A stretch of 13,245 nt of DNA, taken from assembly GCA_030587475.2 (NCBI GenBank), contig JAUQYZ020000178.1:1-13245 (forward strand). Reading direction: 5' to 3'. The DNA comes from Candidatus Sigynarchaeum calidifontis (GTDB lineage: Archaea > Asgardarchaeota > Lokiarchaeia > Sigyniarchaeales > Sigyniarchaeaceae). This document shows, piece by piece, positions 6,440 through 13,178 of this stretch (its first letter is position 1; each line of letters begins with the position of its first letter). The notes below the pieces were generated by a model that worked only from the letters and a program-made list of their open reading frames with translations, did no database searches and had not been told where the DNA came from. Made by a program: the position numbers and the translations under genes.

Positions 6440-8752
6440 GTGAACGCGACAATGCATCCTCCGAATCCAAAAGTCGGGCGTTTTTTCGTCGTCTTTACTT
6501 TCCTCCTGGCGATCGTGACGGCCGGAGTCGGGATTGCGTTCTGCATCGAAGAGGCTTACTTGCAAGCCACGACCGGTGGGCAAGTGGAGCGGTCTATCTG
6601 GTTCGTGCACCCGACGAACGATCAACCCGCGATCGTCATCGTCCAGGACCATTATACTGCCACGGATGCGACCGAAGAATTCACCCTCGTCGTGCACGGG
6701 CTGGGAACCATGACTATCACAAGCAAGGGTGCAACGTGGCAGCAATCGGGGGGTGCTGTTCAAGTGGAGCTGCTCGGGAACATCGAGAGCATCGCGGGCG
6801 CGTCGGGCTTCAACGCGGAAACTGACCGGTTCGAGCCGTACGTGAAAGCCAAGCTGCGTGACAAGGGCGAGGCCCGGCTCGTCTGGCTCGCGATCGACAT
6901 CGAGAACGCGAGCGAGCCGTGCCCCGTCGTGTTGGTCTCCGAACACGAGATCCTCGTCAACAATTCCTTGCGGTTGCACTTGCCCGGGGAATTTGGCCAG
7001 GTCCTGACGATCAACACGACGTACCATCCGTTGCCCAATTTCCAGTTCCGGGGCGACCTCCTCATTGAACGTGAAGGAACCGGGGCGTTCGTCGCGGGCG
7101 CCAACATCGTGAACATCACGTCCGGGGTTCCCACGTCTCCGAAGGAAACGTTCGAATGGGCGAGCGGCGCGAGATGGTTGTCGGAAACGGAGACCGTCGA
7201 ACAGCAAGCTGCATCGAGCCGCACGACCGTGCCACTGGCCACGAAGGCCGGGATCGCTGCCCTCATAGCCGGATTGCCCGCGGGCTCGCCGTTCTTGTTC
7301 AGAAACGCGTCGGAACTGCCCGCCCTGCAAGCAAGGTACAACGCGCCAGCGCCTGGGATCGACGTGGCGCTCTCCGCGAAGTTGAAGAGCGACGCGTTGA
7401 TTGCCCTAAGCTATGATTTCTCCGACACGTCGATCAGCAACGTGATGAAGCGGTCGTCACAGGCGCTGAGCTTGGCGTTCGACGCGTGGCTCACGCAAAA
7501 TGCCACGAGAGCGGGCGTCGTGGCCAAGTTCTTGCTACTCATGCACGATCACATCAACCGCATCGGCGAGGATCCGAAATATCTCCACCATGGCATAAAC
7601 CTGGCAAATTATGTCCTCGCCTGGGACTTCGTGGAGACCTTGATCTCGGCCGCGAACAACACGGCAATCAAGGGAGAGATCACGGCATACGCGCGGTTCG
7701 TCGGGGATTACCTCCCCGGCTGTGGCGACAACAACTGGGAGCTGGTCGTGAGTTCGGGCACGGGGCTCGCGGGGCTGAAGCTCAAGGACGCCTCCCTGGT
7801 GCGAGCGACCCTCGAGAAGACCGATCACTATCTCCGCGAGAACGTGAAGCTGGAAGGCGGCATCTACGAGGGTCAAGGATACATCGGGTACGCGTTCTCG
7901 AGCCACAAGCGTTTCTTGATTGCTCTTGCCCGCTTCGCCGATCTCGGATTTCCCAACTATTTCGCCGACGACCGGTTCCAATCCGTGTACCGGTTCTCCG
8001 CGAGGTGTGCCACTCCCGATGGTTATTTCCCCCTGTTCGAGGATGCAGCATCGGAGACTTCGGGGGCACAGAACGCGATGATCCTGGCCCCATTCTTCGC
8101 CCGCATGGGTGGCCCCGGCGGCGACGAGCTTGCCCAGGAGTTGATGTGGCTGTATTACAAGCACTATGGCAACACGTCCGCCACGTCACCCGTCGAGCAT
8201 TTCTTGTTCGGCAACCATTCCATCGTGCCTCGTGAACCCGTGCTCGATGCAAAGGTCGTCCCCCACCCGCCATACAACGGTTGCAGTTACGTGGCTCCAG
8301 GGTCGGGCCTGGCGATGCTGCGCACGAGCTGGGCAGACAATGCATCGTACCTCGCGGTCACGGCCAAGACATTCGAGCAATCTCACGTGCACAAGGACGA
8401 GCTATGCTTCGAGTTTTGGACGAACGGCGTGAAGCAGTTAACGATGCCTGGGTATCCTGGCTGGGGCCTCGAGCACCACGACTGGACACGGACGACGGAA
8501 GCATCGAACGGAGGCGTGTTATTCGATGGCGAGGGTCAAACCGGCGATTATTGCAAGACGGGCATTGTCCAATGGCTCAGAGGTCGGCAAGTCGACTATG
8601 TTGAAATGGTAGGCGATGGAATTTACGATGCGAAGCATAATTTCTTGTTTGGCAGTGGATACGTTTGGGTCCTTCCGCTCGGGTTCGTGATATGCGGCAT
8701 CGTGATCGTGGTCGATGTATTCCTTTGGAACCGAAAACCAAGAGCCCATTGA
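6440..8752 (+). CDS. Heparinase II/III-family polysaccharide lyase-like protein with N- and C-terminal TM helices (apparently circularly permuted); start may be ATG 6452
   Basis: Toroid motifs SPFLF (HPRL-like), LAFDAWLT, LAWDF, DNNW, GGIYEGQGYIGY and TPDGYFPLFED. Beta-sandwich motifs SGLAMLRTSW, SHVHKD and TEASNGGVLFDGEGQ. TM helices at aa 15-36 and 741-763. Confidence 0.85.
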   Translation: MNATMHPPNPKVGRFFVVFTFLLAIVTAGVGIAFCIEEAYLQATTGGQVERSIWFVHPTNDQPAIVIVQDHYTATDATEEFTLVVHGLGTMTITSKGATWQQSGGAVQVELLGNIESIAGASGFNAETDRFEPYVKAKLRDKGEARLVWLAIDIENASEPCPVVLVSEHEILVNNSLRLHLPGEFGQVLTINTTYHPLPNFQFRGDLLIEREGTGAFVAGANIVNITSGVPTSPKETFEWASGARWLSETETVEQQAASSRTTVPLATKAGIAALIAGLPAGSPFLFRNASELPALQARYNAPAPGIDVALSAKLKSDALIALSYDFSDTSISNVMKRSSQALSLAFDAWLTQNATRAGVVAKFLLLMHDHINRIGEDPKYLHHGINLANYVLAWDFVETLISAANNTAIKGEITAYARFVGDYLPGCGDNNWELVVSSGTGLAGLKLKDASLVRATLEKTDHYLRENVKLEGGIYEGQGYIGYAFSSHKRFLIALARFADLGFPNYFADDRFQSVYRFSARCATPDGYFPLFEDAASETSGAQNAMILAPFFARMGGPGGDELAQELMWLYYKHYGNTSATSPVEHFLFGNHSIVPREPVLDAKVVPHPPYNGCSYVAPGSGLAMLRTSWADNASYLAVTAKTFEQSHVHKDELCFEFWTNGVKQLTMPGYPGWGLEHHDWTRTTEASNGGVLFDGEGQTGDYCKTGIVQWLRGRQVDYVEMVGDGIYDAKHNFLFGSGYVWVLPLGFVICGIVIVVDVFLWNRKPRAH

Positions 8753-8804
8753 CTATTTCCATCACGTATCTTCGCGCGATGATTCGGAGAAAGGAGCGAT
8801 AACC

Positions 8805-9752
8805 GTGGCAAGAGCATCGATCCCCGTCTATCTCGTGACCGGGTTCTTTGGCAGTGGCAAGACCACGCTTATCAACCACGTCCTCTCGACCGTGGAAAAA
8901 GATCGACGAATCGCGGTACTTGTCAACGACTTTGGCGACGTGGACATCGATTCGACGGTCATGACCGCCGGGGGAAGCGGGGTTCCCCAGGTACACAGCG
9001 TGGCCGGCGGCTCGATCTTTTGCTCGTGCCGCCACTGGGAATTCGTGACCGGCTTGCATGCCCTCGCGGATCACGGGCCCGATTTCATCATTGTCGAGGC
9101 ATCCGGGATGGCCGACCCGTCCCCCATCAAGACCGACATCAAGATCGCCTCGGACCTCGACAAGGAACACGAATACGCGTACGCGGGGGCGATCTGTCTC
9201 GTCGACGCGTCGCTGTTTTCCAACCAGCTCGGGCTCTTCCCTGTCGTTCGTCGCCAAGTCAAGCACGCCGCCATTGTCGTCGTGAATAAAATGGATTTGC
9301 TCGGCGAGATGGCAAATTCCGAGAAAGATGTGCTTGTCAAAAAGATCCGACGGATCAACAAGGGCGCACGTGTCGAGTTCACGACAAATGCTACGATCGA
9401 CCTTTCTATATTGCTACAAGCGAGCGAGGCCGGCGGGGAACAAGTCCGGCCCGACAGGAGCTTGAACGAGCCGGGGAACCAACCTGGAAAACTCGTTTTG
9501 GAATCGAGGCGAGCGCTCCCCCGCGATGCTATCATTCGCTATTACGATGCTGTGAAGGACAAGATCTTGCGATTCAAGGGCTTCTGCCTGCTCGAAGATG
9601 GGTGGTACCACGTGAATGCAGTCGGTGACCAGCTCCGATTCTCGCCCATCGCGGCGCATCGCGCGAAGTCCGAACTCGTCTGCATCTTCGTCCCCGCGGG
9701 CGAGGCCCGGCTGGCCGAGCTGCGTGATCTCTGGCAGCAATTTGCTGGATGA
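8805..9752 (+). CDS. COG0523/CobW-family (G3E) P-loop GTPase, putative metallochaperone
   Basis: Walker A GFFGSGKTT, VLVNDFG, GGSIFCSC, IVEASGMADP, CLVDA, VVNKMD, and a CobW_C-like ILRFKGF. Start reassigned to GTG 8805, which has AAGGAG at 8791-8796 and avoids overlap with the lyase gene. Confidence 0.9.
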   Translation: MARASIPVYLVTGFFGSGKTTLINHVLSTVEKDRRIAVLVNDFGDVDIDSTVMTAGGSGVPQVHSVAGGSIFCSCRHWEFVTGLHALADHGPDFIIVEASGMADPSPIKTDIKIASDLDKEHEYAYAGAICLVDASLFSNQLGLFPVVRRQVKHAAIVVVNKMDLLGEMANSEKDVLVKKIRRINKGARVEFTTNATIDLSILLQASEAGGEQVRPDRSLNEPGNQPGKLVLESRRALPRDAIIRYYDAVKDKILRFKGFCLLEDGWYHVNAVGDQLRFSPIAAHRAKSELVCIFVPAGEARLAELRDLWQQFAG

Positions 9753-11428: not shown

Positions 11429-11458
11429 CGTTGACATGGAGATCGATCGTCATTGGCG

Positions 11459-12097
11459 ATGTACATGAGCGATCTAATCCGAGATCTCAAGAGGAGCCGG
11501 CTCGTCGCCGTCGTGGAGATCGGCGACGCAGGTTCGGCCGTGCCCCTGGCACGCGCGCTACTGGACGGCGGAGTGCATTTCATCGAAATCACATTCCGCA
11601 CGGAAAGCGCCGGGGACGCGCTGTTGGCGCTAAAAGACGCCAATACCGGGCTGCATTACGGCGCGGGCACGGTCAGGACAAAGGAACAAGCCGCGCGTGC
11701 TATAAAGGCGGGCGCCGAGTTCATGGTCGCGCCCGGCTTCAACAAGGATATAATCAAGATCGCGATCGATGCCGGGATCCCGTTCTTCCCTGGCATCGAT
11801 TCCACGCTCGGGATCGAAGCTGCATTGGAAATTGGACTCACGACCTTGAAATTCTTCCCCGCGGAAGAATCTGGGGGCGTGAAGTGGTTGAAGGCGGTAC
11901 ACGGGCCATATCCCGAGATCATGTTCATCCCAACGGGCAGCGTCTCTGCCAATAACATGAAGGAATACCTCGAGATGCCCAACGTGCTGGCCATCGGCGG
12001 CAGTTTTCTTGCCCCAAAGCAGCTCATCAAGGACAAGAAGTTCGACGAGATAACAGCAGCGTGCCAGAAAGCATCCGGGGTCGTGAAATCATTATAA
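11459..12097 (+). CDS. eda: 2-dehydro-3-deoxy-phosphogluconate (KDPG)/4-hydroxy-2-oxoglutarate aldolase, bacterial type (start may be 11465)
   Basis: AVPLARALLDGG, IEITFRT (catalytic Glu and Arg), GAGTV, AGAEFMVAPG, LKFFPAE (Schiff-base Lys), FIPTGSV and IGGSF. Confidence 0.95.
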   Translation: MYMSDLIRDLKRSRLVAVVEIGDAGSAVPLARALLDGGVHFIEITFRTESAGDALLALKDANTGLHYGAGTVRTKEQAARAIKAGAEFMVAPGFNKDIIKIAIDAGIPFFPGIDSTLGIEAALEIGLTTLKFFPAEESGGVKWLKAVHGPYPEIMFIPTGSVSANNMKEYLEMPNVLAIGGSFLAPKQLIKDKKFDEITAACQKASGVVKSL

Positions 12098-12128
12098 CAG
12101 CAATGTTATCTAGCAAAGGGAGAACGAG

Positions 12129-13178
12129 ATGGTTCAAGCAGAAAAGAAGAGGGTCGTGACCCTCGGCGAGATAATGCTCAGGTTGAAATCACCAGGGAGC
12201 GAGCGCTTGTTCCAGTCGCCAATGCTCGAGGCGACCTTCGGTGGCGGGGAGGCGAACGTGGCCATATCCCTTGCAAATTTCGGCATCGAGGCATGTTTCG
12301 TGACCGCGTTGCCCAAGAACGCGATCGGCGATGCCGTCATCGCGTTTCTTCGCTCGATGAACGTCGACACGTCGAAGATCGCCCGCCAGGGAAAGCGCGT
12401 TGGCGTGTATTATCTCGAAGGAGGGGCCGGCCCGCGCCCATCGAACGTGATCTACGATCGCGAGCACTCGGCAATGTCAGAGGCAAAGCCCGAGGACTTC
12501 AACTGGGACGAGATCCTCAGCGATGCCAGGTGGTTTCATATCACGGGCATCACGCCAGCAATCTCCGCCTCGTGTGCGGCGCTGTCGGTCGCCGCGGTCA
12601 AGAAAGCGAAGGATCGTGGGCTCACGGTTTCGTGCGACTTGAACTATCGAAAGGCCCTGTGGAAGTACGGGAAAGCAGCACCCGAGGTCATGAAGCAGTT
12701 GATGCCCCACGTGGACGTCGTCGTGGCAAACGAGGAGGACATCCAGAATGCTCTTGGTATGCAACTGGACCAGCAGATCGGAGGTACCGAGCTATCCACG
12801 GAAAAATACGAGGTGCTCGCGAAGCAAGTCCTCGCCGCGTTCGGGAACGTGGAGCTCGTCGCCATCACGCTCCGCGAGAGTTACTCGGCAGATCACAACG
12901 ATTGGTCCGCGATGTGCTGCTCGAGAACGGAAGGAAAAGCTCGCGTTTCCCGTAAGTACCGGCTTACCGACATCGTGGATCGAGTTGGTGGCGGTGACGC
13001 GTTTGCTGGCGGGCTCATCTACGGGCTCGTGAACAAGCTGGACTTGCAAACAGCACTCGAGTTTGCCGTGGCAGCTTCGGCGCTGAAGCACACGATACCT
13101 GGCGACGCGAACCGGGTCTCGATCGACGAGGTGTTGAAGCTCGTTGGGGGCGACGTCTCCGGGCGCGTGCAGCGCTAG
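12129..13178 (+). CDS. kdgK: 2-dehydro-3-deoxygluconokinase (PfkB family)
   Basis: GEIMLRL, FGGGEANVA, RPSNVIYDR, WFHITGITPA, DLNYRKALW, ANEED, DRVGGGDAFAGG (PfkB signature 2), KHTIPGD and C-terminal GRVQR. Adjacent to eda. Confidence 0.9.
   Translation: MVQAEKKRVVTLGEIMLRLKSPGSERLFQSPMLEATFGGGEANVAISLANFGIEACFVTALPKNAIGDAVIAFLRSMNVDTSKIARQGKRVGVYYLEGGAGPRPSNVIYDREHSAMSEAKPEDFNWDEILSDARWFHITGITPAISASCAALSVAAVKKAKDRGLTVSCDLNYRKALWKYGKAAPEVMKQLMPHVDVVVANEEDIQNALGMQLDQQIGGTELSTEKYEVLAKQVLAAFGNVELVAITLRESYSADHNDWSAMCCSRTEGKARVSRKYRLTDIVDRVGGGDAFAGGLIYGLVNKLDLQTALEFAVAASALKHTIPGDANRVSIDEVLKLVGGDVSGRVQR

Follow-up and report, generated by a model that had tools for sequence, protein, structure and literature searches.

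The stretch of DNA analyzed here (the window, 13,245 bp) is an entire contig (C51) of the 5.0-Mb, 89%-complete genome of Candidatus Sigynarchaeum calidifontis. The feature under study is the open reading frame (ORF) at positions 6440 to 8752 on the forward strand, which encodes 770 amino acids when counted from the GTG at 6440. The ATG at 6452, corresponding to Met5, is judged from the sequence to be the likelier start, since the homologues begin at the equivalent of this residue. The ORF product is almost certainly a circular permutant of the heparinase II/III-type lyase fold. Its chain runs from a first transmembrane (TM) helix, TM1, through the later part of a beta-sandwich (residues 46 to 256), a linker, an (alpha/alpha) toroid (residues 283 to ~600), and the first part of the sandwich (residues ~600 to 730) to a second helix, TM2. 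The features are collected in Table 1.

Table 1. Features of the ORF at 6440 to 8752 (residues counted from the GTG)
Feature	Residues	Nucleotides	Strand	Basis	Remarks
Whole ORF, putative permuted Hepar_II_III/PL39-like enzyme	770 aa from GTG	6440..8752	+		
TM1	~15-36	6482..6547	+	Hydropathy, charge bias in 35 members, predicted helix 10-43	Signal anchor or signal peptide; basic K11 and R14 ahead of it
N-terminal beta piece	46-256	6575..7207	+	Profile matches and fold match to 6jp4	Later sandwich half plus C-terminal beta region of ordinary lyases
Linker, old C terminus to old N terminus	~257-282	7208..7285	+	Lies between the two fold alignments	
(Alpha/alpha) toroid	283-~600	7286..8239	+	Profile match to 6jpn, Z 29.4, conservation	N431-N432-W433; predicted catalytic Tyr481 at 7880-7882
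Sandwich, first half	~601-730	8240..8629	+	PF07940 positions 9-91, profile, fold, conservation	H649-x-H651-x-D653 at 8384-8398; ends ...DGIY729
TM2	~742-765	8663..8734	+	Hydropathy, charge bias, model	
Basic tail NRKPRAH		8735-8749	+		Follows TM2; then stop codon

Sequence and model evidence for the chain order

The ORF product matched the Pfam family PF07940 (Hepar_II_III_C) at 27.6 bits against a gathering cutoff of 24, over residues 619 to 701. This match spanned only profile positions 9 to 91 of 237, and residues 40 to 260 alone matched no Pfam family. The major data on the order of the segments were obtained with a hidden Markov model (HMM) built from ten permuted proteins only and run against 161 collected proteins. 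Permuted proteins matched this HMM in one stretch, whereas ordinary relatives matched it in two stretches with the order swapped. The clearest case was P0038, a protein of 726 residues, in which HMM positions 280 to 726 mapped to residues 28 to 462 and were followed immediately by HMM positions 41 to 137 at residues 463 to 564. The second piece had a domain E value of 3e-13 among the 161 sequences (41.9 bits), corresponding to ~4e-6 when rescaled to a library of 1.8 billion proteins. The pieces also abutted in nine more canonical-order proteins, eight of them to within 1 residue (gap or overlap) and the ninth with an overlap of 2 residues. Both pieces were found in 62 canonical-order proteins, and the N-terminal piece (N-piece) followed the core in every one. 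For the 33 of these with an E value of <1e-3, the residue gap corresponded to the profile gap expected for a join of positions 726 and 41 (median difference, 1), which are equivalent to residues ~730 and 46 of the ORF product. Homologous segments are thus exchanged about a precise junction in these relatives.

The identity of the N-piece was supported by the following data. In canonical relatives with more complete coverage of PF07940, the segment equivalent to the N-piece begins at about position 120 to 125 of the 237, and R51, D70, and H86 were invariant when permuted N-pieces were aligned with the canonical segments. A profile combining the two matched the solved lyases in their C-terminal parts only, namely residues 506 to 705 of the polysaccharide lyase family 39 (PL39) alginate lyase Dp0100 (6jp4; E value, 3e-23), residues 507 to 627 of heparinase III (5jmd), and residues 629 to 744 of Atu3025 (3a0o). 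The core profile, for its part, matched residues 24 to 452 of Dp0100 (6jpn) with an E value of 2e-19, and the core aligned with the toroid and the first sandwich half only. These profile matches were obtained at an identity of only 12 to 17% to Dp0100; a single-sequence phmmer search of the PDB with the whole protein gave nothing significant, and PDB sequences were matched only at chance level when the ten permuted N-pieces were made into a profile by themselves. The protein is homologous to the heparinase II/III superfamily but has a different topology: the canonical order is a toroid followed by an uninterrupted sandwich, and here the later sandwich half precedes the toroid.

The same arrangement was obtained from structural models. 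The full-length AlphaFold2 model, made from a 10-row alignment, had a predicted local distance difference test score (pLDDT) of 71 and a pTM of 0.71. Its best match was chain A of 6jp4 (Z, 29.4; root mean square deviation [rmsd], 3.5; 420 residues aligned), in which residues 263 to 735 corresponded to chain residues 9 to 499. The further matches were to PL15, PL17, PL21, PL33, and PL35 lyases and to DS-epimerase, with Z scores of 19 to 24, so that a toroid with an antiparallel sandwich was recovered in this predicted model with Z scores of 19 to 29 over about 400 to 430 residues. When the N-piece was folded alone from a 28-row alignment (pLDDT, 81.5), the best match was again 6jp4 chain A (Z, 12.5; rmsd, 4.1; 199 residues aligned), with model residues 3 to 217 corresponding to chain residues 485 to 722. 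The next matches were the C-terminal parts of exoHep, heparinases II and III, DS-epimerase, PL17, and PL15, and unrelated sandwiches gave Z scores below 7.

When the core and the N-piece were folded as two chains, an ipSAE of 0.92 was obtained, compared with 0.00 for the best of three controls; the ipSAE mark applied is reached by 58 of 80 solved complexes and by 2 of 110 mismatched pairs. Contact agreement between runs was at least 94%, and the partner pLDDT was at least 88. In protein numbering, the contacts of lowest error were 719-55, 720-54, 721-53, 722-51, and 723-50/51, together with residues 690 to 695 against 86 to 81. From the pairing of residues 719 to 723 with 55 to 50, the strands closest to TM2 and TM1 in the chain are predicted to form an antiparallel hairpin. 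By prediction only, the new termini are adjacent and the old termini are joined. The packing result may owe something to the solved lyases on which the model was trained; likeness to these lyases is itself the point under test.

Most of this arrangement had been proposed in the initial annotation, made from the sequence alone. The HPRL-like start that it placed near residue 283 was located as SPFLF at residues 283 to 287, within the toroid alignment, and the sandwich does stop in mid-domain at residues 717 to 729, where QVDYVEMVGDGIY is found; the match to PF07940 ends at position 91 of 237, at residue 701. Its proposal that a normally later segment follows TM1 was borne out, from GGQVERS at residues 46 to 52 onward, by the profile swap in the 62 relatives and by the fold match to residues 485 to 722 of 6jp4. 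The cut that it placed in one sandwich loop was mapped to the junction given above, and the closeness that it expected of the new ends in space is reproduced in the predicted hairpin. The linker at residues ~250 to 282 had to be revised: it does join the old termini but is shorter (~257 to 282), as the fold alignment of the N-piece ends at residue ~256 and that of the core starts at residue 263. Residues 195 to 256 are beta structure homologous to Dp0100 up to its residue 722 and not low-complexity linker.

Distribution of the permuted family and its long membrane forms

A word-indexed search yielded nine relatives of 744 to 996 residues with the same layout and identities down to 24%, the named ones being from Lokiarchaeota/Promethearchaeota metagenome-assembled genomes (MAGs). 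An exhaustive profile search gave 1,832 relatives at an E value of ≤1e-3, and among the best 150 of these, several dozen representatives matched the profile end to end. The permuted layout was found in 46 representatives of 50%-identity clusters, which derive from independent metagenomes in NCBI, JGI, ENA, and Logan assemblies. All named permuted members are Asgard archaea (Promethearchaeota, Hodarchaeota, and Hermodarchaeota). Of 301 genomes sampled across the phylum, only 4 gave a match to the N-piece profile, and the order was the same in each.

A second permuted copy is present in the source genome (C192:9698-12721, reverse strand); it has ~1,000 residues, TM1, and a multihelix C-terminal membrane domain. 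The same genome carries a more distant PF07940 gene (C21:19359-21914, reverse strand; 852 residues from stop to stop) with a single N-terminal hydrophobic helix, which gave no match to the permuted-family profile. In another genome of the same order, two long-form copies (open frames of 1,059 and 1,068 residues) lie on a single contig, ~3.5 kb apart (G183:C82:49007-52939, reverse strand).

Most of the permuted family is ~950 to 1,150 residues long and has five more TM helices after TM2. In these long forms (e.g., P0009, P0013, and P0027), the helices lie within ~270 to 300 further residues and make up one conserved membrane domain, a 306-position profile of which matched all long forms. The extension had no match in Pfam. 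An ESM Atlas assignment of the extension (e.g., P0009:725-996) to a "Yip1 domain" at 0.88 fell below the trustable level and is noted as a lead only. In the source genome, the extension profile found no separate gene besides the C192 paralogue, and the short form at 6440 to 8752 is therefore not a split gene.

The descent of the family was deduced from a FastTree analysis of the core regions (138 rows; midpoint-rooted drawing). All 46 permuted rows formed one clade with a Shimodaira-Hasegawa-like support of 99, lying inside the canonical relatives, of which P0038 and the P0055 group were the nearest. In the drawing, the permuted lineages listed first are of the long form, with the short clade (P0001 to P0008; support, 100) nested within them. 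The permutation consequently looks like a single event, and the short form looks like a secondary loss, so that the two-helix protein has probably been derived by shortening from a 7-TM protein in which the lyase is the first outer loop; the order of these events is probable and is read from the midpoint-rooted tree only. No canonical-order relative showed TM helices at the 726|41 junction or a duplicated sandwich piece ahead of the toroid, and no evolutionary intermediate was found. The closest canonical-order relatives (P0055, P0060, P0061, P0068, P0078, P0108, and P0133) are metagenomic proteins of ~1,050 residues. P0055-type relatives have two to three TM helices at residues ~330 to 400, just before the toroid, which is another membrane-embedded layout, and the N-terminal 400 residues of this group (~330 of them before the TM helices) matched no Pfam family.

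Membrane flanks, active site, and alternative explanations

Hydrophobic 19-residue windows at residues 15 to 33 and 744 to 762 had Kyte-Doolittle values of 2.5 and 2.75. In the 12-residue flanks of both helices in 35 permuted members, the summed net charge was +100 before TM1, −9 after TM1, −5 before TM2, and +72 after TM2. The two hydrophobic helices thus carry the positive-inside bias expected of a doubly anchored ecto-enzyme, and the basic residues that the initial annotation had assigned to the cytoplasmic side of each helix are a property of the family. Since basic residues precede TM1 and follow TM2, both termini are predicted to lie inside the cell and the enzyme outside. TM1 ends ~10 residues before the first strand, and TM2 begins ~15 to 18 residues after the last.

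The active-site residues, Tyr481 in the toroid and His649-x-His651-x-Asp653 in the sandwich, lie wholly within the C-terminal 450 residues. Y481 and H649 were each present in 45 of the 46 permuted members; together with H651 and D653 (42 to 45 of the 46 for the four positions), they are also the majority residues in canonical relatives. Further conserved residues are N431, N432, E477, R628, and N690. In the core-profile alignment, Y481 and H649 align with Tyr239 and His405 of Dp0100, which constitute its catalytic pair (review, PMC13709232). The combination of a catalytic Tyr in the toroid and the His of an HxHxD motif in the sandwich, by which the superfamily is recognized, is therefore retained. 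The position after the N-N pair in the toroid is Trp433; among permuted members it is His in 26 and Trp in 18, and canonical relatives are similarly mixed.

From these data, the ORF product is very probably a permuted, membrane-flanked ecto-enzyme of lyase fold, closest to PL39, of single Asgard origin, and with helices lost in its own clade. The ancestor would have been an (alpha/alpha) toroid with an antiparallel beta-sandwich of the heparinase II/III superfamily, nearest to PL39. Its chain would have been opened at one tight sandwich hairpin, where ordinary relatives read "...aY / GG..R.i.fv", and the old C and N termini would have been joined by a short linker. Each new end would enter a hydrophobic helix within ~10 to 18 residues, so that the enzyme would be a single loop outside the cell, flanked by two membrane helices that both depart from one point of the fold. 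The permutation would have arisen once, in the Asgard archaeal lineage, in a protein that also had five more TM helices after TM2, and these would have been lost in the clade of the ORF. At the cell surface, the enzyme may act by beta-elimination on a uronic-acid polysaccharide; such lyase activity is somewhat favored, and the data are best read as a lyase at the surface that acts on a uronic polysaccharide, which may be sulfated. TM1 is fairly likely to be retained uncleaved, which the attachment at both termini proposed in the initial annotation presupposes.

Several neighboring genes, here and beside homologues, bear on this reading. Downstream of the ORF, a KDPG/KHG aldolase gene (E value, 9e-61) adjoins a PfkB-family kinase gene (E value, 6e-36) at 11453 to 13178 on the forward strand. 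This pair is the usual end of unsaturated-uronate (KDG) catabolism and also occurs in archaeal Entner-Doudoroff variants. In an "uncultured archaeon" MAG (L006:1601-5436, forward strand), a 46% orthologue lies directly downstream of a sulfatase (PF00884; E value, 7e-44; with an SGSH_C domain) and a DUF3604 protein, a hint that the substrate may be sulfated. L008, which is more distant within the family, has a GH2 gene nearby.

The other genes of the window are as follows. The upstream neighbor P0011 (4267 to 6426, forward strand; 719 residues) resembles the lyase in being hydrophobic at its N terminus and in ending with a TM helix and a basic tail, and its only matches were weak ones to alpha-galactosidase, alpha-amylase, or GH97-type barrels (E values, 4e-4 to 9e-3). 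An ORF for a CobW/HypB/UreG-type GTPase (8715 to 9752, forward strand) would overlap the end of the lyase gene by 38 nucleotides if its first ATG is used, and a later start is possible since the conserved domain begins at residue 37. P0012 (9763 to 11385, reverse strand; 540 residues) has about five N-terminal TM helices followed by a soluble domain of ~370 residues without a Pfam family.

Some of the data weigh against the proposed surface lyase. The full-length model is moderate only, with a pLDDT of 43 to 81 in the sandwich half, and the fold evidence as a whole consists of predicted models. Synteny is kept only with the 83% orthologue (L004), and the neighbors of L005 to L008 differ, so that the gene context supports a catabolic role weakly. 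The chemistry may also be narrower than that of heparinase II or PL15-type enzymes because, in the sequence, Trp433 takes the place of the second catalytic His that many relatives have in the toroid. The Trp substitution would suit a permuted fold that serves as a C5-epimerase, or as an enzyme modifying or trimming the cell's own surface glycan, and not as a depolymerizing lyase. Human DS-epimerase 1, with the same Tyr/His set, was the second-best fold match (Z, 24.1), and the permuted family is rare and fused to a membrane domain without a Pfam match. Such a function is nevertheless considered unlikely: the nearest relative in both sequence and fold is the endolytic alginate lyase Dp0100, and the aldolase and kinase neighbors, the sulfatase by the orthologue, and the GH2 near the distant member point to catabolism. 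The N-terminal helix, for its part, could by its n-region and h-region be taken for a Sec signal peptide as readily as for an anchor. A cleaved signal peptide, with the permutation intact and the mature enzyme held by its C-terminal helix, is a lesser but real possibility, as anchoring by a C-terminal helix only is a common layout of archaeal surface proteins and the corresponding features of P0011 suggest a generic export-and-anchor design. The uncleaved anchor is preferred since the hydrophobic stretch of TM1, ~22 residues, is long for a signal-peptide h-region, TM1 is conserved across the family as a helix with small residues (AGVGI and IGLGLG), and most relatives also have a C-terminal membrane domain of six helices, with which TM1 would make seven.

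Two further explanations would remove the permutation itself, and the initial annotation had named both as fatal to its proposal. Residues 40 to 260 could be an unrelated accessory domain, like a carbohydrate-binding module or an immunoglobulin domain, placed before a C-terminally truncated lyase; the failure of the N-piece in Pfam, and of the permuted-N-piece-only profile in both Pfam and PDB sequences, would fit this. It is nonetheless highly improbable, since the permuted-only profile places the N-piece in the post-core region of the 62 ordinary relatives at the expected register, the best fold matches of the N-piece are lyase C-terminal parts, and the N-piece is predicted to complete the core sheet. 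That the layout stems from a misjoined contig or from chimeric assembly of two tandem paralogues is scarcely credible. In favor of this are the small size of the contig (13.2 kb) and the tandem paralogues of another Asgard genome, but the same uninterrupted order is found in the 46 representatives at identities down to 24%, in the syntenic 83% orthologue, and in the second copy of the same genome.

Significance and comparison with known systems

The ORF provides an exactly mapped permutation of a carbohydrate-active enzyme with two domains, in which the cut falls within the second domain and each new end has become a membrane helix. The initial annotation knew of no lyase with such a topology. 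Full-text literature searches that paired circular permutation with alginate lyase, heparinase, or polysaccharide lyase, and Asgard with heparinase, gave no relevant hits, and no description of such a permutation and membrane mounting was found for any polysaccharide lyase family. Domain models register only "half" of Hepar_II_III_C, and permutation-blind pipelines will misdescribe the family. The enzyme may be fixed in orientation a few nanometers from the membrane, a geometry that enzyme engineers could find useful to study. For Asgard surface biology, the layout is a lineage-specific invention, and the long forms embed the lyase in a 7-TM protein. It is tempting, but rather doubtful, to propose that the permutation made it possible for an entire lyase of two domains to become the first outer loop of a 7-TM protein. 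The family would then be an apparatus built into the membrane that links depolymerization of a uronic polysaccharide, from the surface or the environment, to uptake or signaling by way of its own helices, and the two-helix form would be a stripped-down derivative. Were this true, the family would represent a novel class of membrane proteins that process polysaccharides, found until now in Asgard archaea only.

The best sequence and fold match for both pieces is the catalytic domain of Dp0100 from Defluviitalea phaphyphila (PDB 6JP4, 6JPH, and 6JPN), which shares the toroid, the sandwich, and the Tyr and His residues described above. The ORF product differs from it in the rotated chain order and has no counterpart of Dp0100 residues ~723 to 770 or of its extra modules. 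It is also membrane flanked whereas Dp0100 is secreted, and the His of the toroid "NH" is replaced by Trp. With the canonical superfamily (PL12, PL15, PL17, PL21, PL33, PL35, and human DS-epimerase 1), the two-domain architecture is common, as are the motifs N-N-[H/W], EG..Y, HxHxD, and R...D...H in the later sandwich; in those enzymes, however, the toroid precedes the whole sandwich, and no solved one starts inside the sandwich. P0038 and the P0055/P0060/P0078 group, which the core tree places as sisters to the permuted clade, keep the ordinary order with profile pieces that abut (gap or overlap, ≤1 residue), and the TM helices of the P0055 group lie before the toroid and not at the sandwich hairpin. 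The long forms, including the C192 paralogue, have the permutation, TM1, and TM2 in common with the ORF product, which is without their five-TM-helix extension. Natural permutants are known among carbohydrate-active enzymes, namely, the GH70 glucansucrases relative to GH13 and the GH16 beta-glucanase of Fibrobacter, and these are glycoside hydrolases that are soluble or secreted. The rotated chain order is alike in all, but the ORF product is a lyase-type enzyme cut within its second domain, with a membrane helix at either new end.

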